Shown piece after piece: positions 1-19,718 of a DNA stretch of 64,000 bases; the stretch's first letter is position 1; each line of letters starts with the position of its first letter. Under the pieces are notes generated by a model, which had not been told where the DNA came from, ran no database searches, and saw nothing but the letters and a program-made list of their open reading frames with translations. The stretch is from Candidatus Zixiibacteriota bacterium (GTDB lineage Bacteria > Zixibacteria > MSB-5A5 > UBA10806 > 4484-95): positions 35,739-99,738 of the forward strand of contig JAOZPT010000002.1 of NCBI GenBank assembly GCA_029932605.1, in the 5' to 3' direction. Position numbers and translations under genes: made by a program.

Positions 1-239
1 GGAATTAACATAGAATAAAGAAAGGCGCGCTTGGTAGATTTCGTCTCAAACTCATAAATATCGCCGGTAAGGGGAATTTCCTCAGAGCCGCCAACCGATT
101 TTTCAGCGGCAAAGAAATTATTAGCCACCATTTCATTAGCTGAAAAATATCCTTCGATAGAAACAGGCTCTTTTAATTGACCGGTCCAACCTATGGACGA
201 AAGGGATATAATCAATATAGGCAACAGTATCCTGCGCAT
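1..239 (-). CDS. Partial CDS (N-terminal part, runs off the window edge). Hypothetical secreted protein with an N-terminal signal-peptide-like segment, MRRILLPILIISLSSIGW...
   Basis: Seen in sequence: the reverse complement of 1-239 is an open frame starting at an ATG (complement of 237-239). A GAGGAGG Shine-Dalgarno (complement of 244-250) sits 4 nt upstream. The N-terminus is hydrophobic and signal-like. This ORF is not in the supplied track because it is truncated by the window edge. Confidence 0.45.
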   Translation of the reverse strand, partial: MRRILLPILIISLSSIGWTGQLKEPVSIEGYFSANEMVANNFFAAEKSVGGSEEIPLTGDIYEFETKSTKRAFLYSMLI

Positions 240-249
240 AAAACCTCCT

Positions 250-3200
250 CTATTTAATCAAAGCTACTTTTACAATTACATTTTTCTTTATGTCCGGAGA
301 GCTGGCTTCCAGCCTGGCAAAATACACACCTGAAGCAAATTCCGAGCAATCCCAAGAGACTTCGTTTACTCCCCCTCGAGGAGACGAGCCTTTCAGTTCA
401 TCTACCAGTTCACCCGACATATCGAATATCTTAATATTCACCTCGGCTTGGCGATCGACATAATATCTAAAACAAGTCATATCAGTAGCGGGATTAGGAT
501 AATTGTAAACCTCGGCCTCAGGTAAAAAACCCTCAGCAATCGATATATCCTTATCAAAAGCAGGCGATAGATAACATCTATGGCCGATACCGCCACCAGC
601 CATGGGCCAGGGAAGGTTAATGCTGTCAGTTGAGGTTTCAAGATCCCAGACAGAGACGAATCCAGCGCTGTCCATTGCTGCCACCTCGATATCGCCATCA
701 GCGTCAATGTCACTTACTATCGGCGCCATCGTAATCCTTGTTGAGGTTGGCAGAGGAAACCCACCAAGCATATCGCCATGATAATTGTAACACGCCAACC
801 CGCCATCCGGAAGGCAAACAAGTATATCGGGGTTGTTGTCGGCATCAACATCCGCTATCACTGTTTCCACTTTTTGCATTGCCCAAGACCAACTTTGGGG
901 TAAACGAACAGGGAAACCATCAAATAATACCTCCAGATTATTATATACATACACACAGTCATTACCGCCGGTAAAAATTATCTCAGGATAGCCATCGGAA
1001 TTAATGTCAGCCAATGATGGTGGGCCCGGGCTTTCTATATTTATCGTTTTAATCGTCCCCCTCTGGCCATTATAAATACATAGATAATCGCCCACCGTAA
1101 CGACGGCATCATCGAAGCCATCACGGTCGATATCACCACAGACGATACCGATAACATGGCCATCCGGTAAGCTTATAGTATGTTGCTGGTCTGCATCGTT
1201 CTCACCGTGGTTACGAACATAAAGATTGAAATTATCGGAACTGCCATAAACAACAAAGGTCATTTCATCAGATATGGCAATATCTATGGGGATATCATCG
1301 AGATCATCAATAAGAGTAACGTCAATAGTATCTATATCTGAGATATCGATAAGGTGCAAAGAAGAATCATCGAACCCCACAATAAGCTCATCCTTATTGT
1401 CATTGTCGATATCATAAGCTACCGGACCAGCAGTGAGCGATGCTGACAACGTTTCAGATACCAATAAATCTGCCAAGGAATCAAGCGGTGTTCGATCGTA
1501 TCCCTCAAATATATATAACTTGTTCAAAATATCACAGCAGGCTACTTCCAAGGAATCATCACCATCAAAATCACCAGCTATAAGATTGCCTGTGATATTT
1601 GTATCTAATATGGCAAAAACCGGCAAGACATATATTAGCGAATCGCCATCGAAACCGGGAATTAAAAGGCCGGAGCTGGTGTCCATAACCGGTGAACCAT
1701 CGGGATTCACTGCTATTAGAAACTTTCCGACACCGGTTAATATTTCATTCTGGCCATCCGAATCGATATCCAAAACCAATAAGCCATCACAATTATCACC
1801 AAGATCGGGAAATCCCATTACCGGAAAACCATCCTGGTTCCAGCCGATTGAGATATCACAATACATAAGAGTGTCCGTTTCGGTAATACCGGTTATGGAT
1901 ATATGTGTATCAGCACCGAGATTGGAGCGAGTATCAGGATTAGTTGAGGGGGTAAAATCGGTATTATTGCCGATTTTGAAAAAATCGTCATCAGTGCCAT
2001 AACCGCTAAAATAGTTATAATCTCCCAAATCAACTATACCATCTGCCTCCACCACTGAAACGAAACGCCTGTTTGGGTCCCATTGAAGGGTATTTTGCAG
2101 GAAGTTATTACCACCTTCTCCAACATAATCCATATAAGCTACCGCTTCATCGACATGCCATATCAACACACCATCCCCGGGCAACAACCGGTCGTATTCG
2201 CCGGTCAGGACTTTATATAATTCGTTATTATCATAATAAGCCCAACCTGGGCCAAGGATAACACCCGTTGTCGAATCGGCTATAATTGCATTAGGTATAG
2301 ATGGATCATAATGAATATAATCGAAATCAGCATATCTCTGACGATTTTCTATAAGGAAATATTCCATTTCGGAAATCGGCACTTTCACAATTTCATCGTC
2401 GTGATAGTATTGTTCAGCGGCTGAAATAACGACATTCTGTCCATCAGCGATTTCCCTGACAGCAGAAAAGCCCAAATAAGCACGAGACCAGGCATCGGGA
2501 TAAACGGGTAAGACACCTGTTACAAACGGGCCATCGTCCTCGAAAATTATACTTACTGAAAGACCGTTGTTATCCATAAGAGAAAAATCCCCAACCGCAG
2601 TTTGAAAATTGTAGGTGTTATAGAGGTCAACAAGGCCAAGTTGATGCCCGAATTCATGAGCTAAAACAGCGTTTAACACACCAACCCGATTATCCTGGGA
2701 CACAGTCTCCGGAACGATTAAACCATCGGGTATATCCGTCCAGCCGGCACCATTTGAATCGACGCATACCGGTTCAGCCAACCTTATAAAACCTGTCCAG
2801 AGGTCAAATGGTGTGTCATTGATAAAGGCGATATTGTTCTGCTGGTCGCTACCGGCATGAAATAAAATTACCGATTGATAGTCAGAGAAGTTTATTTCAG
2901 GAGCTAATGTATCCGCTAATTTTACAGCATCTTTAAAAAAGCGTTCAAGTCTAACTACGATACTATCCATTCCCCATGAGGTCTCAGATCCATAATAAGA
3001 TATAGGATTAGGCAATCTAAAAGATAATGTTTCTTCCTGAGGATAAATATCCCATTCAAGGTTAAGTGTTTTATCAGAGACAAACCACCAGTAATTATGA
3101 AGAGCCTCCAGGTGTGATGAGAAATACGATGTGTTGTGAGGAGCCGGGTCAAAATCATGCCCTTCTTCCTCCACGAATTGGTCAAGTGAACGAAGGTCAA

Positions 3201-3531
3201 AGTTGCCGTTACCGGTGGTGGTTGGATCATCAGGGTCCTCTGTTTGGAATTCAATCTTTAAAGCAAGTATACGTATTGTATCAGCTTGGATTGCCAGAGT
3301 TATTGGTATGCCGTTTTTGCGTATAGCAGGACCAAACGGCGTTTCTCTCTCCAATCCCAGAAGGTTTCTTTGACAAATCATAGAGCGAAATTGAATTGTC
3401 CCGGGTGGAATATCATTTTGTTGATAGGTGATTATTTTACCGCCTGCCTGCCGAGGTGTTAAAAGCTTATATTCCCCAGATCCTGCTGGAATGACCAACG
3501 AAATCAACAATATTAAAACAAACCAAACCAC
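250..3531 (-). CDS. Secreted M6 (immune inhibitor A-like) zinc metallopeptidase with FG-GAP/VCBS-type repeats and a T9SS C-terminal sorting domain
   Basis: Seen in sequence: N-terminal signal peptide (MVWFVLILLISLVIPAGSG). HEFGHQLGLVDLY fits the HExxHxxGxxD zinc-binding signature of M6 peptidases. Multiple D-x-D-x-DG repeats are present (DIDSDGQNEIL, DIDRDGFDDAVV, DINSDGYPEIIF, DIDADGDIEV), typical of FG-GAP/VCBS. The last ~80 aa (YNYPNP...GVYFARL...VKV) match the type-A T9SS CTD (TIGR04183-like). Family assignments are from established knowledge. Confidence 0.75.
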   Translation of the reverse strand: MVWFVLILLISLVIPAGSGEYKLLTPRQAGGKIITYQQNDIPPGTIQFRSMICQRNLLGLERETPFGPAIRKNGIPITLAIQADTIRILALKIEFQTEDPDDPTTTGNGNFDLRSLDQFVEEEGHDFDPAPHNTSYFSSHLEALHNYWWFVSDKTLNLEWDIYPQEETLSFRLPNPISYYGSETSWGMDSIVVRLERFFKDAVKLADTLAPEINFSDYQSVILFHAGSDQQNNIAFINDTPFDLWTGFIRLAEPVCVDSNGAGWTDIPDGLIVPETVSQDNRVGVLNAVLAHEFGHQLGLVDLYNTYNFQTAVGDFSLMDNNGLSVSIIFEDDGPFVTGVLPVYPDAWSRAYLGFSAVREIADGQNVVISAAEQYYHDDEIVKVPISEMEYFLIENRQRYADFDYIHYDPSIPNAIIADSTTGVILGPGWAYYDNNELYKVLTGEYDRLLPGDGVLIWHVDEAVAYMDYVGEGGNNFLQNTLQWDPNRRFVSVVEADGIVDLGDYNYFSGYGTDDDFFKIGNNTDFTPSTNPDTRSNLGADTHISITGITETDTLMYCDISIGWNQDGFPVMGFPDLGDNCDGLLVLDIDSDGQNEILTGVGKFLIAVNPDGSPVMDTSSGLLIPGFDGDSLIYVLPVFAILDTNITGNLIAGDFDGDDSLEVACCDILNKLYIFEGYDRTPLDSLADLLVSETLSASLTAGPVAYDIDNDNKDELIVGFDDSSLHLIDISDIDTIDVTLIDDLDDIPIDIAISDEMTFVVYGSSDNFNLYVRNHGENDADQQHTISLPDGHVIGIVCGDIDRDGFDDAVVTVGDYLCIYNGQRGTIKTINIESPGPPSLADINSDGYPEIIFTGGNDCVYVYNNLEVLFDGFPVRLPQSWSWAMQKVETVIADVDADNNPDILVCLPDGGLACYNYHGDMLGGFPLPTSTRITMAPIVSDIDADGDIEVAAMDSAGFVSVWDLETSTDSINLPWPMAGGGIGHRCYLSPAFDKDISIAEGFLPEAEVYNYPNPATDMTCFRYYVDRQAEVNIKIFDMSGELVDELKGSSPRGGVNEVSWDCSEFASGVYFARLEASSPDIKKNVIVKVALIK

Positions 3532-3543
3532 TTAATTTCCTTT

Positions 3544-6129
3544 TTAAAAACCTACATTCATAGAAAAACGCATTGTGTTACCCATACGGTTGTATCGTTC
3601 ATCTGAGGCGGGAATATATGAAAAATCGAATCTATAGTTTGTCCACTGCAGCGATGCACCAAGGGTTAAATATCTCTGTTCCCCTATCTCATCATAAATG
3701 TACCCGGCGCGCAACGAAACATAGTTTGAATACCAGTATTCAGCGCCAATATGAGGTATAATCTCTTTGATTTCCGTTTCGATGTCATCGTTGAGGTCAA
3801 CTAATAGCTTATCAGCTTCCCCGATAAATGTAAGCTTGTTAAAAGGTGTATCAACAAGTTTGTAGGCGAAAGCTATTGCCAATTTAGTAGGCAACGGGTC
3901 GGCCTGGTCAGCGTCGATATAAGCGATATCGGGACCAATATTAGTTATAGTTGATGCAAATGTCATTTTCCTATTCATACTATATAAGATGCCACCATCC
4001 ACGGCAAAAGAAAAACCAACTCCCTTGCCTTTCTCCATGATAGCACCGACATCGGCAAGATGGGAATTTATATATCTTGCGGATAAGCCAGCAGACATAT
4101 TTTTTGCCAATTTCGTTCCATAAGATAGTGTAATGGCCAAATCGTAGGAGTTAAACTGGCCAATAACCGTGCCAACTTCATCAGTCCGATCCTGCCGACC
4201 ATACGACATAAAGGTTATGCCCAAGCCAAAAGTCCCCCATTCACTGCTGGGATAGACGATGGAGAAGAAATCATAGTAAAGGTCTTTTGCAAGTTGAACC
4301 AAATAATTCGAATGCATGAAAGTAATCTGTCTTACAGCATGAGCAAGAATATATACCTTGTCGTCCGTGGCAAACCACATCTCTCCCGATTCGGTTTTTA
4401 TCGTATGGGTCGGGGTTTTAGCAAGCTCTGGCTTGGAGAATCTGCTCCAGAGGCCATCGTTATATTCAACCACACCATAGGCGGTGCCTATATAGGCTTT
4501 CTTTGAAGAATGTACAGCTATGGAAAGAATCGGAGCACCAAGAGCATTGGCATAAACCATGACACTCCGCCCCTGGTCTATCATTTCCCCTTCCTCAAGA
4601 TTGTTGTATTCCCTGATTAGTCTGGCAAGATGTTGGACTTTTTCTGGGGAAATTCCGGGTAAAAACTCCTTGGCAATTTCCTCTGCAGAAATCATTTTTT
4701 CAGGTTTATATTCCTTATAGCCGAAGTGAAAGAATGTTTTACCGTTAAAAAAGATAACTCCCTTTTGGGTTCCTATCCAAACATTTTTATCTTTGGCTGC
4801 CAGTGAAAGAATTTTACCTTTAAAAGCCAATCTGAAGGGGAGTTTAATCTTCTGACCAACCGTTAAATCCCCTTGAATACCGTTAAAACTCATTATCTCG
4901 CTTTTAATACCCTCTAAATCAATTACAGCCATTGCCCGATAGAAAATATTTATGATGTTATCGATATCCTCGCCAACCGTGACCTCATGCTCAACATAGT
5001 TCCGCCACTCATGGCCATCATAGTAGAAAAGGTCATTTTCATAAGCTGCCCAGATGTTGCGATCATTGGTTGCTGCAATATTAGTAATGTAACCCGATGG
5101 AGGATTTTGCTTGGAAGAATATTTTTTGATCTTGACCCCGTTAAAGTAAACAACCCCTTTAGCGGTGCCAATAACAATGCTTTTCCTTCCTATCCGGCCC
5201 AAAGCCGTGATCTTTAAGGAAGGCAAACTATCCTCTAAACCATACGATTTCCATCTATTCCGCCTGGGATCAAAACGATAGAAACCGTTATCGGTACCGG
5301 TATACAACATACCGCCATGAGATTCCAAACAATTAATTTTTGAACCTAAGATCAAGTCGTAAGGTATCTCGATTTTATTTATTGACCTTTTCCTGATCGC
5401 CTGGTCAAAACCAAAAGCAATCTTGTCAAGCTCCAAATTTGTCATAAGGCTATCGGTTAACCCTTCACGTATTATCTTCTCAAGCGCATTAAAACCATCC
5501 CTATCTATCTTAAGATCATTCCAGGCGTTTCTAAGCTTATCAAAACCAAAAGATATTTCCTCTGAATACTGGTAATCATCGGGGATAAATGGTTGAAGTA
5601 TTTGTTGAAGAGTGTCTATTTTTTCGATCGGGATGTCGTTGTTCAATCTGGTAAGTTTGTCATAATAGTTTTTAATCTGCTCCTCTTCCAACCCTGTATA
5701 GCGAAGCAGTATATTTTTTATCGTTTTCCCTTCCTCTAACGTATGAGTAGTTCCCCTTTTCCATGACTCTCCATTCCATCGTGATATATGTCCATTAATG
5801 ATAGCCCAGACATCATACTGGCGGTAGTTAACCTCAGGAATATCGTTTTTAACGAGAGCGATATTCTCAATTTTTTCTCCCTTATCGGTGCGAATCTCAA
5901 TCCAGCTTGGTGATAAAGGATACCTGCCCAAACCAGCAGGATTCCAGTGGGTTGCTGTGGCATCATCCGAAATAGCGACAAACGTTTCCCCCATACCGCC
6001 GGCTCTGGCTCCGGGAGCAATAAGCAGAAACGGCACCGCGGTTTGAGAAACCTGGCCAAAGACACTTATAACTAATATTGCTATCATTATTGGTACCCAT
6101 GCCAGCACCTTTTTCATATTATCCTCCAA
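3544..6129 (-). CDS. PorV/PorQ-family T9SS outer-membrane beta-barrel with a large inserted beta-propeller (two-component-regulator-propeller-like repeats)
   Basis: Seen in sequence: signal peptide, then VPFLLIAPGARAGGMGETFVAISDDATATHWNPAGLG, which matches the N-terminal signature of PorV/PorQ (and UPF0164) barrels. The C-terminal ~330 aa alternate hydrophobic residues in a beta-strand pattern and end in -NVGF, as outer-membrane barrels do. Between these lies ~480 aa with repeated G-T-x-x-G-(V/F)-x-x-(F/Y)-(N/D)-G-x-x-W motifs (GTDNGFYRFDPRRNRWKSY, VWIGTQKGVIFFNGKTFF, AYIGTAYGVVEYNDGLWSRF) resembling Reg_prop repeats. This middle-domain assignment is an inference. Confidence 0.6.
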   Translation of the reverse strand: MEDNMKKVLAWVPIMIAILVISVFGQVSQTAVPFLLIAPGARAGGMGETFVAISDDATATHWNPAGLGRYPLSPSWIEIRTDKGEKIENIALVKNDIPEVNYRQYDVWAIINGHISRWNGESWKRGTTHTLEEGKTIKNILLRYTGLEEEQIKNYYDKLTRLNNDIPIEKIDTLQQILQPFIPDDYQYSEEISFGFDKLRNAWNDLKIDRDGFNALEKIIREGLTDSLMTNLELDKIAFGFDQAIRKRSINKIEIPYDLILGSKINCLESHGGMLYTGTDNGFYRFDPRRNRWKSYGLEDSLPSLKITALGRIGRKSIVIGTAKGVVYFNGVKIKKYSSKQNPPSGYITNIAATNDRNIWAAYENDLFYYDGHEWRNYVEHEVTVGEDIDNIINIFYRAMAVIDLEGIKSEIMSFNGIQGDLTVGQKIKLPFRLAFKGKILSLAAKDKNVWIGTQKGVIFFNGKTFFHFGYKEYKPEKMISAEEIAKEFLPGISPEKVQHLARLIREYNNLEEGEMIDQGRSVMVYANALGAPILSIAVHSSKKAYIGTAYGVVEYNDGLWSRFSKPELAKTPTHTIKTESGEMWFATDDKVYILAHAVRQITFMHSNYLVQLAKDLYYDFFSIVYPSSEWGTFGLGITFMSYGRQDRTDEVGTVIGQFNSYDLAITLSYGTKLAKNMSAGLSARYINSHLADVGAIMEKGKGVGFSFAVDGGILYSMNRKMTFASTITNIGPDIAYIDADQADPLPTKLAIAFAYKLVDTPFNKLTFIGEADKLLVDLNDDIETEIKEIIPHIGAEYWYSNYVSLRAGYIYDEIGEQRYLTLGASLQWTNYRFDFSYIPASDERYNRMGNTMRFSMNVGF

Positions 6130-6261
6130 AGCTAATTAACCACTTCATTAATTTATCGTCAACAAAATGCTCGTTAAAAGCTTAAAACCTGTATCTTCTT
6201 TTTACAACCTTGCTCAAGCCAATATTGTCAATTTAATATTTTAAATCAACCCTTTTAACCA

Positions 6262-9200
6262 CTAACGCAAAATCACTAATTTCGACTGAAAACTCGACTT
6301 CCTGCGAACGCCATCAACACCTGTACCGATTGCCTCAATTTTATAGATATAAACTCCGCTGGCAAGTTTATCACCATCATCATCCCTAAGATAGTAAGGA
6401 ACATATTTGTATCCCCCGGTGGTGTATGTCGTTCCGGTCAAATCGAAACTTTTAACTTTCCTTCCCGATAAGGAAAATATCTTAAGCGATACTTTTTCGG
6501 CGGAACCGGTCAGCATATATTGAAAAACGGTCGAGTCAGCTCTGACAACAGGGTTGGGATAGTTCATCACTCTCTGTATAGAGAAATACTCATCCTGGTA
6601 TACCCGGATAACTGCTGTAAACAGGGAGGAGTTATTGTAATTGTCCCAGGCTTTTAATGAAATTTGATGTTCGCCCTCAGGGATATCCGATATCTCAAAA
6701 GTTGCCGAGCCCTGTTGCCAATCCCCCTTATCGAATATGAAATTATTTGTGATATCCTCTGAATAAATATCACCATCATCCAATTTCACCACAATTCCAT
6801 GCCCCATTGAACCGGTCATATTGATACCATGGAGGTCAAATAAACGGGTTTCAAACACGGCATTAGCAGAGACAGCGGTTAGACCACTGTTCAACATCTT
6901 ACCGTTATATAAAATCTCTATGGTTGGACCGATAGAATCGGCCTCGGCAGAAATCCCGCCAGCGATTGATATCGAATCTACAACCCCCGAACCATCTACA
7001 AAACCGTTCTCGAAATAAACATAAATTCTGGCTCTGCTTCCGCCATAGGTGATATCCTTGGGTATAAAAAACGATGTCGAGAACTGGCCATTGCTGACCT
7101 CGGCTGGACCGTTGAAAATAGTTGGCCCGGGAAGAATGTAATCAACATATATCGGCGGATATAAGGGAACACCGGCGTAATTAGTCAAGGCTTTATGCCT
7201 GTTAATTAAAGCATCTTTGACAAGCACCCAGACAGTGCCGTTGAAATCTGACATAAACAAACTATCCTGATAGATCTCGCCGGATATAGAATCAATTGTT
7301 AAACCCCTTAAGGAATCCGGCCTGTAGGTAAAATGCGCTTCAAGCGAGGGTTTTCCAGCAATCAATGCCGGATCGCTAAAAATTACATATCCCCTATCGT
7401 TGTCAATACTGCCTCTGAGAAACTTTGCTATATAAAGTGCCCCACCAAAAGATGTTGAATCACCGAACAACAGTTGATCAAATATCTCCCTATTTAAAGC
7501 GGAGTTTTGTCCAGCATTGACCGGCCTTGTGGCTCCGATAGAGGCGATAGCCCCGCCGTTGGGGTAACGAATAAAATCCTCGGACATCCCCTGTTCATTG
7601 GGGTCATCGAAAAACCCGACCGAACATGAAGCGGCTAATATCATAGGCAGTTTATCATGATTGTGAAGGAGTGGTATATCTTCAATCCTTCTAAATAAAA
7701 TCTCATGAGCCCACAATCCTTTGTTGCCATGACCGATCCAGTTGACTATCAGTCCACCATTATTAATAGCACTAATAAGAGCCTCTCTGGCATCAGGTTT
7801 TGTCCTGCCGGCGCGAATTGGATACTCCAGCATATAAATTTTTTGCACCTCGATATTTTTGGGCACATGTAATTCAGCTAAAGCTTCGGCTTGATTTGTA
7901 TGGAACGCCTCTCTCATACCATCACCAAAATTGTCATCAGCGGCGATGATGATGTTATTGCGCCACTTTCCTATAGTCGGATTGGATTCATAGTTGATAA
8001 TTTTCTCGACAACAATATCCATCTGGTCAGTACTGTTCACCGGTATGCGACCAATTATCATATCTATACTGCCGGAATCATCATAGTCCAAATCACCAAA
8101 CTGACCAAAATAGATATAATTATCATCGGAAGCTGAGGCTGTTGTACTGTTGGGTTTGGGGGCTTCAAACGGTGGTATGAACATTCCCCCGCTTGAGCCA
8201 AGATTGTTTCGGTAATCGAAATGCCCATCACCTACCAGCATTACATACCCCGGTGGTGCACCGCTCCAGTTTTCATAGGCGTATTTCAAGAAATCTCTTA
8301 TGGCCATCGGATCAAACAAACCCCAGCTAAACTGATTATATATATCTTCAATATCCACCACCATAGCGGTTATACCAGGAGAAACACTTTCCCTATGAGC
8401 AGCCAGCTCCAGCGACTGCTGATAGAATTGCCCATGGGTGATGATTATGTAATCAGCCCTGTTCGAGGCCGATTTCAGATCAACAGGTTCATAAAGGTCA
8501 AAACTGCTGACCGTCTTATAACGTGATGAATTAGCAAGATAATACAAACGCCTCAAGTAGTTATAATGTTGAAATCTCAATTCAGAACCAGATAATTCAG
8601 CATTGACAATCAGGCAGACACTGTCAGGATATGAGATATCAAGAAGTATGTAATCCGAAGGAACATTGGTTAACCTGTATTCTATCAAACCCGGAGAATC
8701 AGGGCTTGAAAACATAAGTTTATTGTCTAATACATACAGTAAACGGTTGTAGTGAACATCGATATAATCAAGGTAAAATTTGGCAGTATCAGTAACCGAT
8801 ATTATATTAAAACCACTCCTAAAATTTGTAGAATTATAAAGAAAGATACCATTGTAACTCGATATCAATCCAGCCTCGACATTATTTACCAAAAGATTTT
8901 TCATTCCTCCACTTGCTTTAACTACAACCAGCGCTTCACTGCCAGTCACAACATCGAACAGTTGAACATTCGATGTGAAAGTCGTATCCCAACCCCAGTA
9001 CCATTCGAAATAATTATAGTAATCAGTGCTTGTACCCTTTTGATAAAATTTAACTTCCCTTTCTTCATGTATAAAGTCGTCAAAACTTGTCACAGCATAA
9101 TCGTACGGTTCCTGAGGCGAACCATCAACTTCAGCCCATCTTTTAGGAGAAGAGGCAAAAGAACCGTTATATGTTAACCAGTAGACGTTCTTCGAGGTAT

Positions 9201-10233
9201 AATGGTTATGCCGAAAAACAAACCTACTATCATCAGGGCTGTATTCGAACCTGTCGGTAGCTTCGGCATAAAACAGTATCTGGTCTCCACCGTCAAATTC
9301 GCCATCATCCTCCCCTATTACATGAATTGGTATCTCGTACAGTTGGGGTCTTGGTTCATCGTTGTCAAACGGTAACTCGGCTCCCCCCCCGTAAAATATT
9401 CTTATCTGTCGGGGGTCAACCTCATCGATCTCAACTCCAGCAGTTGAGAGTTCATAACGACCGATTTTATAAACTCCAGCATCGGTCACCTCAAGTTTTA
9501 CCCAAACCAACGATGAATCGAAAACAGATTGACTTATCTGGGTTTTTGAGGGAATCGGTGGCCAATAGATACGCCAGTTTTTAGCTATATCATAATTGGC
9601 TATTATCCGAGGAAGAATGTTTTCGAATACCTGACCAACTGGCCGCGGAGGATAATAACCACCTTTTTTCGCGCTGTTAAAATCAACCCTTACCGTTATG
9701 GTTTCACCTTTATATAACATTCCATTTTCTATCTTAGCTGCCGCTATTCCGATTTTTATGACTCTTAAACCGCGTAACATCTCTTCTCCGAAGATAAAGG
9801 CGGTATGTAAAGGCCAGTTTTTCTCAGATGTGATCCGGTTAGAGGCCCTGGATGAATAATCCTGCGAAGGTAATTCAACATCAAAATTGGGAACATCCGA
9901 TTTTCCAATGTTATTGTAATGTTGGCTTAAGACTGTTACTGTTGGCTTAGAATCATAGGGAACACCTATCGGAATAAACTTTAAAGGCAAAAGAGGTTGA
10001 CCCTGACAACGATTTTGTGCAGTCCGGGATATCTGTGGATATTTGAAATTTTCAGGATAACCGTTAATACTGGTCAGAACGACATCGGGAACAAAATATG
10101 TAAACGTAATTCCATTTTCATCAGAAACCAATATCTTTACGTCACTATCAAATATCTTTTCAGCTTGAGCAAAATTAAAGAATACAATTAATAAAAAAGT
10201 GGTAATTATCGCATTTAAGGCGAGCCTCATCAA
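6262..10233 (-). CDS. Gingipain-like C25 cysteine peptidase with a T9SS C-terminal sorting domain
   Basis: Seen in sequence: signal peptide (MMRLALNAIITTFLLIVFFNFAQA). A catalytic His context (NWIGHGNKGLWAHE) and a catalytic Cys context (ILAASCSVGFFDD) typical of peptidase family C25. A C-terminal NYPNPV...KIFSLSGRKV...GVYIYKIEA block matches the T9SS CTD. At 1323 aa, the size fits a propeptide plus catalytic domain plus Ig-like domains plus CTD. Confidence 0.8.
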   Translation of the reverse strand: MMRLALNAIITTFLLIVFFNFAQAEKIFDSDVKILVSDENGITFTYFVPDVVLTSINGYPENFKYPQISRTAQNRCQGQPLLPLKFIPIGVPYDSKPTVTVLSQHYNNIGKSDVPNFDVELPSQDYSSRASNRITSEKNWPLHTAFIFGEEMLRGLRVIKIGIAAAKIENGMLYKGETITVRVDFNSAKKGGYYPPRPVGQVFENILPRIIANYDIAKNWRIYWPPIPSKTQISQSVFDSSLVWVKLEVTDAGVYKIGRYELSTAGVEIDEVDPRQIRIFYGGGAELPFDNDEPRPQLYEIPIHVIGEDDGEFDGGDQILFYAEATDRFEYSPDDSRFVFRHNHYTSKNVYWLTYNGSFASSPKRWAEVDGSPQEPYDYAVTSFDDFIHEEREVKFYQKGTSTDYYNYFEWYWGWDTTFTSNVQLFDVVTGSEALVVVKASGGMKNLLVNNVEAGLISSYNGIFLYNSTNFRSGFNIISVTDTAKFYLDYIDVHYNRLLYVLDNKLMFSSPDSPGLIEYRLTNVPSDYILLDISYPDSVCLIVNAELSGSELRFQHYNYLRRLYYLANSSRYKTVSSFDLYEPVDLKSASNRADYIIITHGQFYQQSLELAAHRESVSPGITAMVVDIEDIYNQFSWGLFDPMAIRDFLKYAYENWSGAPPGYVMLVGDGHFDYRNNLGSSGGMFIPPFEAPKPNSTTASASDDNYIYFGQFGDLDYDDSGSIDMIIGRIPVNSTDQMDIVVEKIINYESNPTIGKWRNNIIIAADDNFGDGMREAFHTNQAEALAELHVPKNIEVQKIYMLEYPIRAGRTKPDAREALISAINNGGLIVNWIGHGNKGLWAHEILFRRIEDIPLLHNHDKLPMILAASCSVGFFDDPNEQGMSEDFIRYPNGGAIASIGATRPVNAGQNSALNREIFDQLLFGDSTSFGGALYIAKFLRGSIDNDRGYVIFSDPALIAGKPSLEAHFTYRPDSLRGLTIDSISGEIYQDSLFMSDFNGTVWVLVKDALINRHKALTNYAGVPLYPPIYVDYILPGPTIFNGPAEVSNGQFSTSFFIPKDITYGGSRARIYVYFENGFVDGSGVVDSISIAGGISAEADSIGPTIEILYNGKMLNSGLTAVSANAVFETRLFDLHGINMTGSMGHGIVVKLDDGDIYSEDITNNFIFDKGDWQQGSATFEISDIPEGEHQISLKAWDNYNNSSLFTAVIRVYQDEYFSIQRVMNYPNPVVRADSTVFQYMLTGSAEKVSLKIFSLSGRKVKSFDLTGTTYTTGGYKYVPYYLRDDDGDKLASGVYIYKIEAIGTGVDGVRRKSSFQSKLVILR

Positions 10234-10413
10234 CTCCTCCTGTTCAGCCCGGAAATAACCGTATAAACCCGGACAATTTTATCTGGCCCAAAGGGCACTC
10301 CTCCTCAATTATTAATTCGGCACATCTGCCATAAACCCTTTAGCCAGTTGCGATAAAAAACCTTCCTTTTAATGAATAATAAATGGTTTAAATTTAAAGT
10401 CAAGTTTTTTTGC

Positions 10414-11493
10414 TTATCCTCCAATATGTTCATTCAAAAACGATGCCGAGCCCTCTGCCCTGAAAGCCCTTATGAAATCACACGCTGTCCGGTAAGACTC
10501 ATCTATTATAGATTTAACGTTTTCGGATGGAATATCATCTATCTCTTTCTTAAAAGGTTTTGTTGCCATTTTAATATTTTTACCTTCAGTCTTCGCCCAT
10601 TGTTTCATGCGAGACATCAAATCTGCGGGTAAATGTTTATGGGCGATATTTTGCCAGTGGGTGCCGACATTCCCCTTGCGAATACCATATTCAGCAAATT
10701 TCCCAACTATGTTTAAAGGTGTACCGGTAATGCCATGTTGAGCGATACGGATATCATGTTTTTTAATTGCCTGATAGATCTCACCGGTTCGGTTTAAATC
10801 GATATTTATTTTCTCTCCCTCAAGGTAATTACCGTGCTTGGAACCGTTGTTAATAGCCAGAAGATTAGGATGTATCCCGTTGTCAAGCAAAGCCGAGATA
10901 AAAGATGTCGCCTCTTCCACCGTGGTGATTTCAGCTGTTTGTCCAGCCGATTTGATCTCGCCAACCTCAACCTCAAGACCCCATCCTGCCTCAACTATGG
11001 GTTTGGCAAGCATGGAAGTTATATGAACATTATCGTCATGTTCATTGAACGAAGCGTCAATAGCAAATGAAGTATAACCCGCTTTAAGCTCCTCTGCAAC
11101 CAAAACCTTACCCGCTTCTATCTCGTCGTTGCTCGTGTTCTTGACGGTAATATGGTCACCATGTATGTAAAATGGCATCTCAAAACCGGTTTGTTCAGCA
11201 TAATCAATCAATGTTTCAAAGAAGATACGCGGTGTCATACCTGTGTAACCACCATCGATATTCCCCTCGCTTTTAGCAAGCTCGAAACCAACGATTGCAT
11301 CCAACTCCTGAGCCGCCTTCATAATGCCGGGAATTGCATGTTTAATACGAGTATTGCAGGCCATCATTATCATTTGATGGTCGCGGACCGTATGAAAAAT
11401 ATCCCGTCCATTCAAAAGACAAACTTTACTTTTAGCCCCCAGTTTAGCCTTGATAGAATCAGGCCTTCTTTCAAGTAATTTAAGATAAGCCAT
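10414..11493 (-). CDS. fba: Class II fructose/ketose-bisphosphate aldolase family protein
   Basis: Seen in sequence: 359 aa with YIHGDH, AIDASF and AINNGSKHG segments that resemble the divalent-metal-binding regions of class II aldolases. This is an inference from remembered family motifs. Confidence 0.55.
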   Translation of the reverse strand: MAYLKLLERRPDSIKAKLGAKSKVCLLNGRDIFHTVRDHQMIMMACNTRIKHAIPGIMKAAQELDAIVGFELAKSEGNIDGGYTGMTPRIFFETLIDYAEQTGFEMPFYIHGDHITVKNTSNDEIEAGKVLVAEELKAGYTSFAIDASFNEHDDNVHITSMLAKPIVEAGWGLEVEVGEIKSAGQTAEITTVEEATSFISALLDNGIHPNLLAINNGSKHGNYLEGEKINIDLNRTGEIYQAIKKHDIRIAQHGITGTPLNIVGKFAEYGIRKGNVGTHWQNIAHKHLPADLMSRMKQWAKTEGKNIKMATKPFKKEIDDIPSENVKSIIDESYRTACDFIRAFRAEGSASFLNEHIGG

Positions 11494-11538
11494 ATCTAAC
11501 TCCTTTTAACTTTTCAATAATTGCCATAGTTCCAACAT

Positions 11539-12216
11539 CTATTTGAACATCCAGGTGATGATAGCGGCTAAAGGTAATGCCAGAATCAAATTGCCAACTT
11601 TTATTTTGGACAAGCCAAGGAGGTTAATAGCTATGCCAAGAATCATTACTCCACCGGTAGCTGATATCTCGGTCACTATTGCATCGCTTAAAGCTGTTTG
11701 AAAATACTTTGCCATAAATGTCAACGCTCCCTGGTAAACAAAAACAACCAATGCTGAAAAAATTACACCTGGACCCAATGTCGCCGATAGCGCCATCGAG
11801 GAAAAACCATCCATTACCGATTTAATATATATAAGTTCCCCCCTATTGTAAAGACCATCCTCAAACGAACCAACGATCGTCATAGGACCAACACAAAAAA
11901 GTAATAAGGCGGTGATAAAACCCAAAACAAAATCCTGCCTTGATGAACCAACCCTTTTTTTGAGACTCTCTCCAACTTTTTCTAATTTCTCCTCAATTTC
12001 CAACCACTGGCCTATAATACCGCCTATTACCAATGATACCACAACAATCAAAGCGTTTTCCGTCTTTATAGCCATCTTAACACCTATTAAAACCGTAACC
12101 AACCCCAGAGAGATTAGAATTATGCGCTTGTATTTCTCTTTAAGTTTAGTGCCAGCTAAAAGCCCTATTGAAGAGCCAACCAGGACGGTGCTTGTATTTA
12201 CCAAAAACCCAATCAT
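11539..12216 (-). CDS. DUF554 family membrane protein (YqgA-like)
   Basis: Seen in sequence: 225 aa, polytopic and hydrophobic, with the general layout of DUF554 proteins (MIGxLVNTxxVLxGSxIG...). Inference. Confidence 0.55.
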   Translation of the reverse strand: MIGFLVNTSTVLVGSSIGLLAGTKLKEKYKRIILISLGLVTVLIGVKMAIKTENALIVVVSLVIGGIIGQWLEIEEKLEKVGESLKKRVGSSRQDFVLGFITALLLFCVGPMTIVGSFEDGLYNRGELIYIKSVMDGFSSMALSATLGPGVIFSALVVFVYQGALTFMAKYFQTALSDAIVTEISATGGVMILGIAINLLGLSKIKVGNLILALPLAAIITWMFK

Positions 12217-14725: not shown

Positions 14726-16338
14726 TATCCCTTTCCCGAAAAATCTCTCTGAATAATCGTGTTTTTTCTGAAATTTTCATCATCCCTCTCTGGAAAATCA
14801 ATATTATAGTGAAGCCCACGGGACTCTTTGCGAAGTAAAGCTGATTTTATCAATATCAATGCAACATCAGCGATATTACGAAGCCTCAAAACCTCTTGAC
14901 GAATAGGATTTTTCTTATAGAACTGCCTTATGTGTTTGCGCATCATCATACAACGATCGTAGGCCTTCTTCAGACGGTTTTTCGAGCGTACAATACCGAC
15001 ATAATCCCACATCAGCATACGGATCGTCTGTAAATCATGGGAAACAATAACCCACTCATGATGGTCAAATACACCGGATTCATCCCATGGAGGGAGAGCA
15101 AAGGTTTTTCTTTTTTTGAGCGAGGAGAAGTTTTTGATAGTCCATCGAGCGGCGAAATCGGCAAATGCAACGGCCTCTAAAAGAGAATTCGAGGCCAAAC
15201 GGTTTGCGCCATGCATACCGGTGCATGCTACTTCGCCAGCCGCAAGAAGATTCTTTATCGAGGTGCACCCGTTTATATCCGTAAGGACACCTCCACAGAA
15301 GTAATGGGCTGCGGGCACAACCGGTATCGGCTCTTTAACCGGATCAATACCCAGACTTCGACATTTTTTGACTATGGTTGGGAATCGCCTTTCAATAAAA
15401 GTCTTACTCCGATGAGAAATGTCTAAATAAACACATTCATTGCCAGTTTCTTTTAAAACCTCATCTATGGCTCTAGCAACAACATCACGAGGGGCAAGCT
15501 CCGCCATTGGATGATAACCCTCCATGAAACGTTCGCCATTTGATGACAGAAGTACTCCACCCTCACCGCGAAGCGCTTCCGTTATCAAAAACGGTTTATC
15601 GTCAGTTGTATAAAGCCGCGTTGGGTGAAACTGGACAAACTCGAGGTTTGCAATTTTCGCTCCGGCACGATATGCCATGGCTACACCATCGCCGGTAGCA
15701 ATATCAGGATTGGTTGTATGTTGATATACGTATCCCGCACCACCTGTAGCAAGCATAGTCAAATTGGCGTTTAACGTCTTCACCTTGTTTAGCTTGTTAT
15801 CGTAAACATAAACACCATAACAGGTCAGTTTGCTTTTGGGTATTTTCTTTCCAAGACGATATTGAGTAATGATATCAATCGCGGTATGCTCCTCGAACAA
15901 GTCGATATTTTCATAACCCGCCAGAGAATTCAAAAGCGCCATCTCAATATTACGTCCTGTATGATCTGCAGAATGGACTACACGATTATGGGAATGCCCA
16001 CCTTCCCGGCCAAGGTCGTATTTCCCACGACAATGGGAAAACTGGACACCAAGGTTAACAAGTTCCTTTATGTATTCAGGTCCTCTTTTCACAACTCTTT
16101 TTACGACCTCTTCGTCACAGAGGCCACAACCTGTTTTTAAAGTGTCTTCAATATGGTTCTTATAGCTGTCGGTTTTATCAAATACCGAAGCAATACCCCC
16201 CTGAGCATAGTTGGTCGAAGTGTCGATACGGTTCTTTTTGGTGATAATGGCTATTTTCCCCAGACGAACTGTTTTAAGAGCGTACATCAAACCTGCTATA
16301 CCAGAACCGATAACCAGGATGTCATAATTTTCGCTCAT
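14725..16338 (-). CDS. nadB: L-aspartate oxidase
   Basis: Seen in sequence: N-terminal FAD-binding motif ([13 protein letters not shown]) in a fumarate reductase/succinate dehydrogenase flavoprotein-like fold, with HYFCGGV near the C-terminal third. Size is ~537 aa. The start overlaps the guaA stop by 1 nt. Confidence 0.8.
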
Positions 16339-17333
16339 AATCCCAATAGCTTCTCAAAAATGGATGCATCGCTTACTTCAATTTCTAACACACTAAAATA
16401 TACATCAATATTCCCAAAATCAAAACCCCCAATTTTAACTGCATCCTTGTTTGTGGTTAAAATACAATCTGCACCGTAACACATAGCCTCTTCTTTCAGC
16501 ATATCAATATCCCTTTGAGTATAACGATGGTGGTCTTTAAAACAAATGAATTTCCGGGGCTTGATATTTACTTTTTCCAGGCTATGCTTAAATTTTACCG
16601 GAACACAAATCCCGCAGAAGGCGATAGGTTTTTTTGAAACTATATCATCAACGTTGAAAGATTCTTTTGACTTTAGATGCGTAAATCCAATTATCGAAGA
16701 CGATGACCGGAATATCTTTGCTTGAAAATTCATATTTATCATATGTTTCCCTCTTGCACTGAGGTCATCACAGGATGTGTAAATTATAATGTTGGCTCTT
16801 TTCAATGCCAGAGGTCCCTCGCGCAACAAGCCCATCGGAAGATAACCACCCGGGCCCAATGGTTTAGTCTGGTCAAGGCATACTATATCAACATCACGGT
16901 CAAGTTTGCGATGCTGGAAACCATCGTCAATGATTATCAGCTCGGCTCCGTCGATAGCAGCTTTTCGGGCAGCTTTTGTTTTGGAACCAGCTACATAAAC
17001 TCTAACATCCTTATTGTTCTGGAATATCTCTAACGGCTCATCGCCGGCATCCAGCCAGTTTGATTTATCATCCAGCTCAATAAGTCCTTTTTCAATACGT
17101 TTATAACCTTTAGCTACAACGGCGGTCTTAAATCCAGCTCTCGCCGCCAAATTGGCGATATGAATTACAATCGGTGTTTTGCCAGTACCGCCGGCTACGA
17201 TGTTCCCTACAGAAATCACCTTGCAGGGAAGTTTCACTTTGGGAGCCAGCCGCCAATAGATATCCCACAATAAAACGAATCCCCTGTAAACCAGTGAAAA
17301 TGGCCACAGAAAAAGCCGCCATCGGCCAGACAT
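16335..17333 (-). CDS. lpxK: Tetraacyldisaccharide 4'-kinase
   Basis: Seen in sequence: ISVGNIVAGGTGKTP P-loop in an LpxK-type context, 332 aa. It sits between waaA and nadB with 4-nt overlaps. Confidence 0.85.
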   Translation of the reverse strand: MSGRWRLFLWPFSLVYRGFVLLWDIYWRLAPKVKLPCKVISVGNIVAGGTGKTPIVIHIANLAARAGFKTAVVAKGYKRIEKGLIELDDKSNWLDAGDEPLEIFQNNKDVRVYVAGSKTKAARKAAIDGAELIIIDDGFQHRKLDRDVDIVCLDQTKPLGPGGYLPMGLLREGPLALKRANIIIYTSCDDLSARGKHMINMNFQAKIFRSSSSIIGFTHLKSKESFNVDDIVSKKPIAFCGICVPVKFKHSLEKVNIKPRKFICFKDHHRYTQRDIDMLKEEAMCYGADCILTTNKDAVKIGGFDFGNIDVYFSVLEIEVSDASIFEKLLGL

Positions 17334-18589
17334 TAAATTAACTCCACCAGCTTTTGGGCAATCCTTTTTGAAATCCCTGAACCAGATACAACCGTCTGCC
17401 TGGCTTTCTCACCCATAACCTCCGCAATCTTCTTGTCTGCTGAAACCTCCTTTACCAAATGTGCCAGTTCCCTGCCGTTTTTTACATAAACAGCACCACC
17501 GGACTGAACAAGAAGGTCCGCAAACACACGGCTGTTGTCCATATAAGGTCCAAAACAGACCATACATCCCGCTGAGGCTGGTTCAAGAGGGTCATGCCCT
17601 CCTAATGGCTCAAACGATCCACCTACGAATGCCAGGTCAGCAAAACGATATAGTCCCCCCAATTCACCCATGGTATCAAGAACAAGAACAGGATTTTCAA
17701 TATCACCAGCCCTTTGCAAACCGGTTCTTTTAATATAACTTATATTAAACGATTTTAAACTCTTCTCAACCAGCTTAGAGTCCTTCATATGACGGGGGGC
17801 AATAATTGTTTTAATGTTATTGATATCTCTTCTTATATCATAAATTGCTTTGATTACCTCCATTATTTCACCAGCCCGCACCGAACCCGCTATGAAAACA
17901 AATTTATCTTCTTCATTTATAAAATCCACAAGCTCTTTCGCGGATGGTTTAATATCTCGAATTAGTGCCTGGTCGAATTTGGTATTACCATGGACACCCA
18001 CACTTGAAGGTAACGCCCCGAGCTCGATAAATCTTTTGCAGTCGCTATCGGTCTGTGCCATTAATAAATCTACGCTTTGTAACACCGATGAGAAAAGAAA
18101 CTTAAAAATTTTATAGAATCGAAATGACTCTCTGGAAATTCTGCCATTAACGATGACAATTTTTACACCTTTTTTCTTCAACTGCTTTATTAAAACAGGC
18201 CATATCTCCGTTTCAACAAGCACTAAAAGCACCGGCCTGATTTTTCGTTTAACCATGTTAACCGCGAATATCGTATCTAAAGGCAAGTAATATATATCAG
18301 CTGATGGAAATAACTTTCCGGCCATTTTCTTTCCGGTTTTGGTGATGGTGGTAATGACTATCCGAATATCGGGGATTATCTCATTCAGCCTGGGAAGGAT
18401 TGTTGCGATAACTTTAAGTTCCCCCATCGAGGCTGCGTGAAACCATATCGTCTTCCTATCATCAGGCACAAAATCCCATATGCCGAGCCTTTCCTTTAAT
18501 CCATGTCCACCGATTAATGCCCGCAACACCAAGTATGGCCAGGATATCAAAAGCGCCAATAAAAAAACAATTCTATATATTAAGTACAA
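17333..18589 (-). CDS. waaA: 3-deoxy-D-manno-octulosonic acid (Kdo) transferase
   Basis: Seen in sequence: an N-terminal membrane anchor, then FHAASMGE (the conserved WaaA/KdtA motif) and a GT30 fold. 418 aa. Confidence 0.85.
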   Translation of the reverse strand: MYLIYRIVFLLALLISWPYLVLRALIGGHGLKERLGIWDFVPDDRKTIWFHAASMGELKVIATILPRLNEIIPDIRIVITTITKTGKKMAGKLFPSADIYYLPLDTIFAVNMVKRKIRPVLLVLVETEIWPVLIKQLKKKGVKIVIVNGRISRESFRFYKIFKFLFSSVLQSVDLLMAQTDSDCKRFIELGALPSSVGVHGNTKFDQALIRDIKPSAKELVDFINEEDKFVFIAGSVRAGEIMEVIKAIYDIRRDINNIKTIIAPRHMKDSKLVEKSLKSFNISYIKRTGLQRAGDIENPVLVLDTMGELGGLYRFADLAFVGGSFEPLGGHDPLEPASAGCMVCFGPYMDNSRVFADLLVQSGGAVYVKNGRELAHLVKEVSADKKIAEVMGEKARQTVVSGSGISKRIAQKLVELI

Positions 18590-19227
18590 CTTCCCACCTC
18601 GTTTAATACATCAGCTAAGATATGACTGTGACGTTTAATTTGCATTTGGCTTTTGACGTTTTCCAAAAGTATCGGTTGACCGTACTGCACAACAATCTCC
18701 GCAAAAGGTTTGGGTATTTGAAAACGGTCCCAGGATGAAAGCACCCATTTCTTCGAACTATTGCAGGATACCGGTATAATAGGCAAACCCGATCTGGAGG
18801 CTAAAAATATCACTCCGGGCTTGACAATTCCTCGGGGACCTTTGGGTCCATCAACCGTTATCGCTAAGTCTTTAGCCTTCTCATTTTTTATCATCCCGAA
18901 AAGACCGGAAACTCCCATCTTTGTCGATGAGCCTCGGATAGGGTAATAGCCCATACGCTTAACTATGCGAGCAATGATCTCACCATCGATATGAGTCGAT
19001 ATCAGAATGCCAATATTTCTATTGCGGTGAGTATAACAAAGACTGAGAATACGGTTATGCCAGAAACAGAATATTACTTTACCGTATTTTGCCCTGCACT
19101 GATTTAGCTCGGTTTTGCCCACATATCTTATTTTCCATGTTGAGCCGATAAGTTTGATAATAAACGGCCCGAGAAAACGAGCAACAAACAGTAAAAGTTT
19201 TTGCTTTAATGTGAAGCTCTTGTCCAT
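18580..19227 (-). CDS. DUF374/lysophospholipid-acyltransferase-like protein commonly linked to waaA
   Basis: Seen in sequence: 215 aa with an H-x4-D-like acyltransferase signature (FWHNR, DGEIIARIV). It overlaps waaA by 10 nt. Established knowledge: DUF374 genes frequently sit next to kdtA/waaA. Confidence 0.55.
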   Translation of the reverse strand: MDKSFTLKQKLLLFVARFLGPFIIKLIGSTWKIRYVGKTELNQCRAKYGKVIFCFWHNRILSLCYTHRNRNIGILISTHIDGEIIARIVKRMGYYPIRGSSTKMGVSGLFGMIKNEKAKDLAITVDGPKGPRGIVKPGVIFLASRSGLPIIPVSCNSSKKWVLSSWDRFQIPKPFAEIVVQYGQPILLENVKSQMQIKRHSHILADVLNEVGSCT

Positions 19228-19514
19228 TATAATAGGAAATATTAATCTACAAACCAGTCAAAGTCAATTTTAATGTAGTTACAATTAAGATATAGTGAAC
19301 CTTTAATAGTTGACCCTTTCCAGAGTTAATTAAAAACTGGCTTTTTCTGAGATAGGTGCGAGGCTGGAAAACATCGCCTATTAGGGTGGTGTTTTTGAAA
19401 ACTGTAATTTTGAGATTTTTTAGTGGAACTCCTCGTATAATTCTAACTGACTTAAAAAATTATTGACATAATTAAATATAGTGGCACAGCATTTTTGTGT
19501 TTGAAAAATAGTCA

Positions 19515-19718
19515 GTGAACTTTGTTATGATAAAAGCAAAATTACCTAAAGCCATTATTGGTAATTATTGGCTAGTTATTGTTGTATTCCTTTTTACCAC
19601 TCTATTTCAAGAAGTATCAGCTCAGTGGCAAGTTACTGGAGCTATAATCAGAGACCCTATTAGTCCTATTGACGACGAGATTATTATCCCTGACCAGTAT
19701 TGTATTACTAAACATTAG
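19515..19718 (+). CDS. Candidate small secreted protein, possibly frameshifted with the overlapping ORF 19669-19869
   Basis: Seen in sequence: GTG/ATG start, then a signal-peptide-like IIGNYWLVIVVFLFTTLFQEVSAQ. The +1 frame continues through a Cys-rich stretch (CGGFYCVWEGGC) up to the lpxB stop. No homology support. Confidence 0.25.
   Translation: MNFVMIKAKLPKAIIGNYWLVIVVFLFTTLFQEVSAQWQVTGAIIRDPISPIDDEIIIPDQYCITKH

Follow-up and report, generated by a model that had tools for sequence, protein, structure and literature searches.

Three long genes on the minus strand of a contig from Candidatus Zixiibacteriota bacterium (GCA_029932605.1, JAOZPT010000002.1) raised the question of whether a bacterium outside Bacteroidota carries a cassette of exported proteases with an outer-membrane shuttle of their own, or a part of a type IX secretion system (T9SS) itself. 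A preliminary description of this DNA had proposed the former: two T9SS-sorted proteases (a gingipain-like C25 protein and an M6 metalloprotease) flanking a dedicated PorV/PorQ-like protein. The host was indeed non-Bacteroidota (Zixibacteria), as supposed there, and our analysis of the whole 64-kb stretch of DNA (referred to as the window, whose numbering is used throughout) favored the latter: the genes, named ORF3 (C25), ORF2 (middle), and ORF1 (M6-like), probably encode outer-membrane components of T9SS, namely, PorU, a PorV with a periplasmic propeller/LysM insert, and an M6-like protein that is a likely substrate. The most unusual feature of the locus is this PorV insert of ~526 residues, which was absent from the preliminary description.

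Three large open reading frames (ORFs) were found on the minus strand where they had been described: 250..3531 (1093 aa), 3544..6129 (861 aa), and 6262..10233 (1323 aa), the last two being counted from a TTG start. A GGAGG Shine-Dalgarno sequence and public gene calls on identical contigs favored ATG 6117 as the start of the middle gene (857 aa), and GGAGG before ATG 10230 that of the upstream gene (1322 aa, as in public calls; TTG 10233 is one codon upstream). The intergenic gaps, previously given as 13 and ~130 bp, were 12 bp between ORF1 and ORF2 (3532-3543) and 132 bp between ORF2 and ORF3, or 144 bp when counted from the ATG. The lengths of the ORFs and the E-values described below are far beyond chance expectation. 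The three genes are as follows.

6262..10230, minus strand: porU (ORF3), predicted T9SS sortase of the C25 family, 1322 aa (NF033707, PF01364, PDB 6za2)
7624..7731, minus strand: putative catalytic dyad of PorU, His834 (codon 7729-7731, in NWIGHG) and Cys869 (codon 7624-7626, in LAASCSVGFF)
3544..6117, minus strand: long porV (ORF2), 857 aa, or 861 aa if started at TTG 6129 (NF033709, AlphaFold2 model, Foldseek)
250..3531, minus strand: ORF1, M6-like metalloprotease/FG-GAP propeller/type A C-terminal sorting domain (CTD), 1093 aa, probable T9SS substrate

ORF3 consisted of a signal peptide, an N-terminal extension of ~240 aa, a C25 catalytic domain, and a putative C-terminal β-sandwich. It matched the T9SS_sortase model (NF033707) with 687.1 bits (cut-off 420), query residues 243-1302 covering model positions 6-1078 of 1095, and gave only 172 bits with the PorU2 model (NF052324). 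The E-values toward Peptidase_C25 (PF01364) and the structure of Porphyromonas gingivalis PorU (6za2) were 7e-87 and 3.8e-55, respectively. In the latter alignment, His834, Cys869, and Arg902 corresponded to the GHG, TATCDF, and STTR of P. gingivalis PorU. Arg902 is located 33 residues past Cys869; PorU orthologs are reported to share an arginine 32 residues after the catalytic cysteine (Arg722), which gingipains lack (PMC4560394). The type A CTD that had been ascribed to both outer proteins passed two cut-offs in ORF1 (see below), whereas the C-terminus of the C25 protein scored 20.7 bits with TIGR04183 (cut-off 23) and aligned with residues 1089-1137 of 6za2, that is, the C-terminal domain of PorU. 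Because of the full-length NF033707 match, by far the best among the models, and the PorU-specific arginine, the C25 protein is, as judged from its sequence, PorU, the sorting enzyme of T9SS itself; its identification as a gingipain-type, T9SS-sorted cargo protease was rejected. By analogy with its family, this sortase would cut the CTD off substrates at the cell surface. As a lesson for annotation, a C25 gene adjoining porV is a sortase, not a gingipain.

The middle protein matched the PorV/PorQ family model (NF033709) with 238.8 bits (cut-off 90), the match being split between residues 31-68 and ~593-861 (861-aa numbering). When the intervening insert was excised in silico, the remaining 331 aa aligned end to end with this model (1-326 of 326) at 264.3 bits; the same construct scored 207.3 bits with the PorV equivalog (NF033710) and 98 bits with PorQ (cut-off 220), the PorV score being about twice that of PorQ. 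The PorV2 model (NF052325) was matched in the N-terminal motif only. PF19572 was found in all 55 of 55 long-PorV homologs. An entry of 'candidate division Zixibacteria bacterium 4484_95', annotated as a hypothetical protein, showed 100% identity to the middle protein. The parts of the protein are as follows.

5932..6048, minus strand: conserved N-terminal segment, SQTAVPFLLIAPGARAGGMGETFVAISDDATATHWNPAG, ending in the NPA motif, aligned with Flavobacterium johnsoniae PorV residues 26-64
4354..5931, minus strand: insert of 526 residues, a Reg_prop-type β-propeller with helical and LysM-like modules, probably periplasmic
4837..4998, minus strand: first LysM-like module (residues 374-427), β-α-α-β in the AlphaFold2 model, within the propeller
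4552..4719, minus strand: second LysM-like module (residues 467-522), β-α-α-β in the AlphaFold2 model
3547..4353, minus strand: 14-stranded FadL-type barrel (residues 589-857), ending in MNVGF, aligned with F. johnsoniae PorV residues 65-395

The AlphaFold2 model of the long PorV, built from 68 homologs, had a predicted local distance difference test (pLDDT) score of 84.7 and a predicted template modeling (pTM) score of 0.77, and contained a barrel of 14 long strands at residues 597-856, all C-terminal to the insert. The top Foldseek matches were the PorV chains 8gl6_F (E 3.4e-17) and 6h3i_F (E 1e-14), and FadL appeared after sensor propellers. The N-terminal segment was the best-conserved stretch among the 68 homologs, in which the WNPAG motif was invariant; the PDB contains FadL 'delta NPA' and P34A mutants, consistent with NPA as the hatch motif of the FadL family. 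The N-terminal PorV/PorQ signature and the C-terminal barrel noted in the preliminary description were both recovered, by the family model and by the 14-strand structure model. On the other hand, the proposal of a cargo-linked PorV paralog was largely rejected. The porU and porV genes are standard neighbors, as in PG0026/PG0027 (75 bp apart) and Fjoh_1556/1555 (PMC5445135), and no second PorV-like gene was found within 10 kb in the related loci examined (described below), although a paralog may exist elsewhere in the genome. Since this adjacency is canonical, the middle gene encodes the regular partner of PorU, not a paralog dedicated to cargo. By analogy with the family, its barrel would bind the CTD via extracellular loops at the translocon and hold PorU.

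How does this PorV differ from that of Bacteroidota? In the alignment with F. johnsoniae PorV (861-aa numbering), query residues 28-66 corresponded to chain residues 26-64, and query residue 593 onward to chain residue 65 onward; the 526 extra residues thus all enter the chain at one place, after residue 64 and before residue 65 of the F. johnsoniae protein. The compact architecture of ~330-400 aa, in which the N-terminal segment is joined straight to strand 1, was not kept. The insert was modeled with a pLDDT of ~90-95 as approximately seven four-stranded blades, with an all-helical subdomain of ~110 residues (133-240) and the two LysM-like modules. Reg_prop (PF07494) was detected in the PorV of the window (23.2 bits; cut-off 20.4). 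Among the 55 long-PorV homologs, 45 contained Reg_prop and 25 contained LysM (E <= 0.001): orthologs scored 35.7-44.9 bits (cut-off 20.9) at the first LysM position (~379-435), and two of them (P0091 and P0102) scored 30.3 and 26 bits, respectively, at the second (471-522). Hallmark residues were invariant, namely, Pro427 in the first module and, in 55-68 homologs, Asn505 and Gly516 in the second. The Foldseek matches of the insert were the periplasmic sensor propellers BT4673, BT4663, and BT3049 of Bacteroides hybrid two-component systems. The model and the alignments together show where the insert enters the chain and how it is predicted to fold.

When the insert alone was searched, with no filter applied, against 1.84 billion representatives, the complete module was found only at residues ~65-590 of proteins of 850-1050 aa (66 clusters at 50% identity, E < 1e-30), and weaker matches shared Reg_prop blades only. 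Since the full module occurred only inside such proteins, it is specific to this PorV lineage, and no free-standing version was seen in that search. A subgroup of long PorV proteins (~1020-1050 aa) possessed an extra N-terminal region of ~200 aa, with the insert beginning near residue 265-273 (L031-L035, L057, and L063, with match lengths of ~3060-3130 bp; P0122, P0123, and P0126).

The strand topology of the barrel bears on the membrane side of the insert. In the AlphaFold2 model, loops after odd-numbered strands were 9-17 residues long and those after even-numbered strands 2-5 residues, and the chain ended in the usual C-terminal Phe. Residues 193-199 of F. johnsoniae PorV form an experimentally defined periplasmic loop (PMC10994853), the counterpart of which in the alignment was the turn that links strands 6 and 7 of the model. 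This places the beginning of strand 1, and thus the attachment point of the insert, at the periplasmic rim. Because of this topology together with the LysM units, the insert is most likely periplasmic and faces the peptidoglycan. The periplasmic face of PorV is a known contact surface, the SkpA helix lying on the PorV base, and attachment complexes sit above PorKN rings. Via putative LysM binding, the insert would anchor PorV together with PorU to peptidoglycan; in addition or instead, it might dock PorV to the periplasmic T9SS scaffolding. In Bacteroidota, such tasks fall to separate proteins: PorE for the former, and SkpA/SprE or PorK/N contacts for the latter.

The PorU-PorV pair of Bacteroidota (6za2, 6h3i_F, 8gl6_F) consists of the same two families with the same gene order and adjacency, and with the His/Cys dyad and Arg of PorU; its PorV shares the N-terminal motif and the 14-strand FadL-type barrel with the Zixibacteria long PorV. 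The Zixibacteria pair differs in the 526-aa insertion after the NPA motif of PorV and in the extra N-terminal region (~240 aa) of PorU. The insert has the same Reg_prop-type, seven-blade-like propeller as PorZ, BT4663, BT4673, and BT3049, relatives in which it is saccharide-binding. Unlike these proteins, it comprises one propeller only, interrupted by helical and LysM insertions, contains no Y_Y_Y or CTD domain, and forms part of an outer-membrane barrel protein; its probable location is the periplasm, not the surface. In intimin/invasin-type proteins, a periplasmic LysM domain N-terminal to an outer-membrane β-barrel reaches the peptidoglycan; this barrel family is unrelated to PorV and has no propeller. 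PorE (PG1058) is described as a periplasmic T9SS lipoprotein with TPR, β-propeller, CRD, and peptidoglycan-binding OmpA_C-like domains (PMC7192894, PMC12773672). PorE resembles the insert in pairing a β-propeller with a module for peptidoglycan binding (putative in the insert) beneath the outer membrane of a T9SS, at its periplasmic face, and differs in having no sequence relation to it, in its OmpA_C domain in place of LysM, and in being a separate lipoprotein rather than a part of PorV. That PorE and the insert are functionally equivalent is a hypothesis only.

The third gene raises the question of whether its product is carried by the system or belongs to it. Its features are as follows.

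1846..3288, minus strand: M6-like catalytic region (residues 82-562), with HEFGHQLGLVD (residues 292-302) at 2626-2658
532..1845, minus strand: FG-GAP/VCBS-type β-propeller (~residues 563-1000); PF13517, E 5.5e-14 in three stretches; PF01839, 22.3 bits (cut-off 22.1)
268..501, minus strand: type A CTD (residues 1011-1088); TIGR04183, 32.1 bits (cut-off 23); PF18962, 38.8 bits (cut-off 27)

The C25, M6-like, and FG-GAP calls of the preliminary description agreed with the hidden Markov model searches, the M6 models being matched below their curated cut-offs: ORF1 gave 74.6 bits with TIGR03296 (E 1.2e-20; cut-off 110.8) and 19.8 bits with Peptidase_M6 (PF05547; cut-off 22). Residues 82-562 matched NF052323, a T9SS-dependent M6-like inactivated metalloprotease, with an E-value of 7.7e-114. 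Membership of this inactivated family was rejected, since the score (381.7 bits) was below the cut-off (600) and the catalytic motif was intact. HExxHxxGxxD was kept in 74 of the 78 ORF1 orthologs, three of the four exceptions being truncated at contig ends, and was invariant in a three-way ORF1 alignment. The N-terminus, as read from the sequence, was hydrophobic as for a signal peptide. No sequence-level match to solved structures was found for ORF1, and no relatives outside Zixibacteria occurred among its best 120 matches, all of which had the full-length architecture and, where the source was named, came from Zixibacteria. ORF1 shares the zinc-binding motif HExxHxxGxxD and domain homology (the TIGR03296 match) with immune inhibitor A (InhA, MEROPS M6), and, unlike InhA, carries an FG-GAP propeller and a T9SS CTD as fused domains and falls below the TIGR03296 and PF05547 cut-offs. 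The simplest reading of these features is an active, T9SS-sorted Zn-metalloprotease, either at the surface or secreted. Most likely, ORF1 is a conserved substrate that is expressed along with the machinery sorting it. Of the two protease classes that were thought to enclose PorV, a single conserved, cargo-like metalloprotease remains, encoded downstream of porUV. ORF1 is not the only type A CTD protein of this genome: a second one was found at 42348-43616 on the minus strand (TIGR04183, 37.3 bits; cut-off 23), with an N-terminal region weakly like F510_1955-family glycosylhydrolases.

The synteny called for in the preliminary description was examined by a scan of one genome per species, which yielded 80 loci, and the same gene order was observed across these ~80 species-level loci. 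Most record titles were Zixibacteria, and some were Ignavibacteria, GN15, FCB group, or 'uncultured' (labels as deposited). At least 164 long-PorV homologs were present at 90% clustering, and each locus contained one long PorV. Where the flanks were long enough, tblastn gave, in essentially all loci, the order PorU, long PorV, M6-like/FG-GAP/CTD protein, two DUF5683-like proteins, an NHL propeller, and a protein of ~1100 aa, with median spacers of ~20 bp (PorU-PorV) and ~15 bp (PorV-ORF1); according to gene tables, the gene of the ~1100-aa protein is followed by an Omp85/POTRA gene and UbiA. The operon comprises 8-9 genes with the porU-porV pair at its head. Its downstream part, outside the window, was observed at L003:12331-13927, L002:15865-22583, and L085:7422-15878. 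The two DUF5683-like proteins are paralogous and have signal peptides.

The orthologs of the ~1100-aa protein ended in an invariant Phe, and the AlphaFold2 model (pLDDT 81, pTM 0.69) consisted nearly entirely of long strands; this protein is predicted to be a large outer-membrane barrel. In this family, 17 of the 28 orthologs gave a local match with TIGR04189 (SprA), the best E-value being 2.7e-8, far under the cut-off. The top three Foldseek matches in the PDB were SprA chains (E 3e-10 to 3e-9), with TM-scores of only 0.23-0.25, and SprA was not recovered when the sequence profile of the family was compared with PDB chains. Identification as an SprA/Sov equivalog (TIGR04189; 200 bits and a 36-strand barrel of ~2400 aa) was rejected. 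The barrel is possibly related to SprA, the similarity being weak and inconsistent.

Other explanations of this locus were weighed against the reading of PorU, a PorV with a periplasmic insert, and a likely substrate. The original proposal, in which two cargo proteases flank a dedicated PorV paralog as a self-contained export and activation cassette, may appeal to its correct family-level domain calls for all three proteins, to the tight linkage of the three genes in all loci, and to the fact that PorU itself is CTD-bearing and T9SS-dependent (Table 2 of PMC5445135); nevertheless, it is very improbable in view of the full-length match of the C25 protein to the PorU equivalog, well over the cut-off and with the PorU-specific Arg, the generic nature of the porU-porV adjacency, and the occurrence of a single long PorV per locus in ~80 species-level genomes, with no second PorV within 10 kb. 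Another explanation concerns the insert only: it may be a PorZ-like propeller that binds glycans, lies outside the cell on the barrel of PorV, and delivers a lipopolysaccharide/glycan acceptor to PorU, so that a single polypeptide would unite the PorV/PorQ anchor and the PorZ function. The best folds (BT4663, BT4673, and BT3049) are the closest architectural relatives of PorZ (PMC5121618), PorZ was the only NCBIfam match of the insert alone (21.5 bits, E 6.6e-5), and neither porZ nor porQ was seen in the operon. However, the PorZ match was far under the cut-off (260) and covered ~47 residues in a single blade, the insert precedes all 14 strands, strand 1 of which starts at the periplasmic rim, the chain would have to cross the barrel lumen twice, and the LysM modules suggest peptidoglycan; an extracellular insert was, therefore, considered improbable.

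The role of ORF1 is more debatable. It may belong permanently to the attachment or sorting complex, acting as a functional stand-in for PorZ or as a maturation protease for other CTD cargos, since essentially all related genomes show it next to porU-porV, at a distance of ~15 bp. In P. gingivalis, T9SS component genes are reported to adjoin no cargo gene (PMC5445135), unlike the Zixibacteria operon, which includes a CTD protein, and a universally linked cargo would be unusual. The combination of a propeller and CTD also occurs in PorZ, and the consecutive NCBIfam models NF052323, NF052324 (PorU2), and NF052325 (PorV2), which describe the same three kinds of protein, hint at M6-like proteins with PorU/PorV-like pairs, a link that comes from names and consecutive numbers only. 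Beyond the CTD, ORF1 shows no sequence similarity to PorZ, and its strongly conserved catalytic motif fits an enzyme over a scaffold. A component role is a possible, somewhat unlikely explanation. A broader version of the preferred reading is unlikely in our estimation: the operon may form a streamlined single-operon T9SS module of PorU, a peptidoglycan-anchored PorV, and a half-size, SprA-related translocon (the ~1100-aa protein) with its own Omp85 assembly factor, in which the insert would replace PorE-like anchoring and SkpA/SprE or PorK/N docking, and PorV would be a fixed gate, not a diffusing shuttle. If this were true, the interest of the locus would be higher.

Several observations weigh against the preferred reading of PorU, a PorV with a periplasmic insert, and an ORF1 substrate. 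The cut-off of the PorV equivalog (NF033710, 250 bits) was missed not only by the intact protein (180.9 bits), but also by the excised construct; these scores therefore indicate a PorV-like family member lying outside the Bacteroidota-trained equivalog range. The N-terminal NPA segment was modeled poorly (pLDDT 55-59), and the LysM (PF01476) score of the PorV of the window itself was 13.7 bits (cut-off 20.9). The membrane side of the insert was deduced from topology rules and one alignment, and a peptidoglycan-tethered PorV fits the mobile-shuttle model poorly. Regarding ORF1, its universal linkage to porUV could mean a subunit, not a substrate, and the closest NCBIfam model describes an inactivated protease family. 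No porK/L/M/N, sprA, porZ, or porQ was found among the ORFs scanned in the 64-kb window, nor porK/L/M/N or sprA in the flanks of the related loci, and a complete T9SS in this genome is assumed.

The component families are already known, and the name 'PorV/PorQ family protein' has been given to some orthologs in public annotation. What appears to be new is the architecture with the insertion, together with its conservation across the lineage and the conserved operon: the literature search found no paper pairing Zixibacteria with type IX secretion, T9SS, or PorV, and no description of a PorV with a LysM/propeller insertion; Zixibacteria with gliding motility gave one irrelevant paper, and PorU2/PorV2 nothing relevant. 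The mechanism of T9SS is known almost wholly from two Bacteroidota models, in which PorV, a small barrel, is believed to carry cargo from the SprA translocon to the PorU/PorZ attachment complex. A lineage with a propeller and LysM modules welded to the (probable) periplasmic side of PorV is a natural experiment on this shuttle model: the insert suggests that PorV can be held from the periplasm, may reveal the periplasmic contacts that are important, and provides a soluble domain suited to expression and to studies of peptidoglycan or partner binding. Since no paper describing it was found, the conserved operon gives a compact basis on which a T9SS outside Bacteroidota can be defined.

The remaining features of the operon within the window are as follows.

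10376..10403, minus strand: candidate operon promoter, sigma-70-like TTGACT-16-TATTAT, the best match of the region (10/12; consensus match only)
1..239, minus strand: 5' end of the next operon gene, encoding a DUF5683-like protein of 271 aa with a signal peptide, extending past the window edge

The promoter-like match is located in a 180-bp spacer upstream of porU, and the DUF5683-like gene begins at 239, 10 bp past the stop of ORF1. No terminator-like sites were found between the three genes; all six in positions 1-11600 (consensus matches only) lay within coding sequence, and their number was lower than the shuffle expectation. Positions 1-10403 of the window would represent the promoter-proximal part of the conserved operon, the genes of which are presumably co-transcribed.

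The rest of the window resembled ordinary chromosome, including guaA, nadB, lpxK/kdtA/lpxB/lpxA, dnaK/grpE, pcrA, and a Bat/MoxR operon. The lipid A cluster lpxK, kdtA, lpxB, and lpxA (16335-22763, minus strand) is located 6-12 kb upstream of porU and contains an oxidoreductase resembling UDP-GlcNAc 3-dehydrogenase (151 bits, below the cut-off); a link of this cluster with the glycolipid anchoring of T9SS cargo is speculative. An ABC transporter at 25214-28602 (minus strand) was like the gliding-associated GldA ATPase and a fused GldF-GldG permease/auxiliary protein (843 aa), all below the equivalog cut-offs. An orphan Cas6b homolog was found just upstream of grpE (31887-32531, plus strand; Cas6b_C, E 1.6e-24; Cas6b_N, E 3.5e-10), with no CRISPR array or other cas gene within 30.3-33 kb. 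No enrichment of DnaA-box-like sites near the cumulative GC-skew minimum (~31.5-32 kb) and no dnaA among the window ORFs scanned were detected; this minimum lies in an AT-rich stretch (GC 0.32-0.36), within a region (~28600-32700) where the gene orientation changes from all-minus to all-plus at 28.6 kb and the GC skew changes sign. The genes at 49302-57364 (plus strand) encode a MoxR AAA ATPase, DUF58, VWA proteins, TPR, BatD, and TPR, an ordinary-looking cluster of the Bat type (aerotolerance-like).

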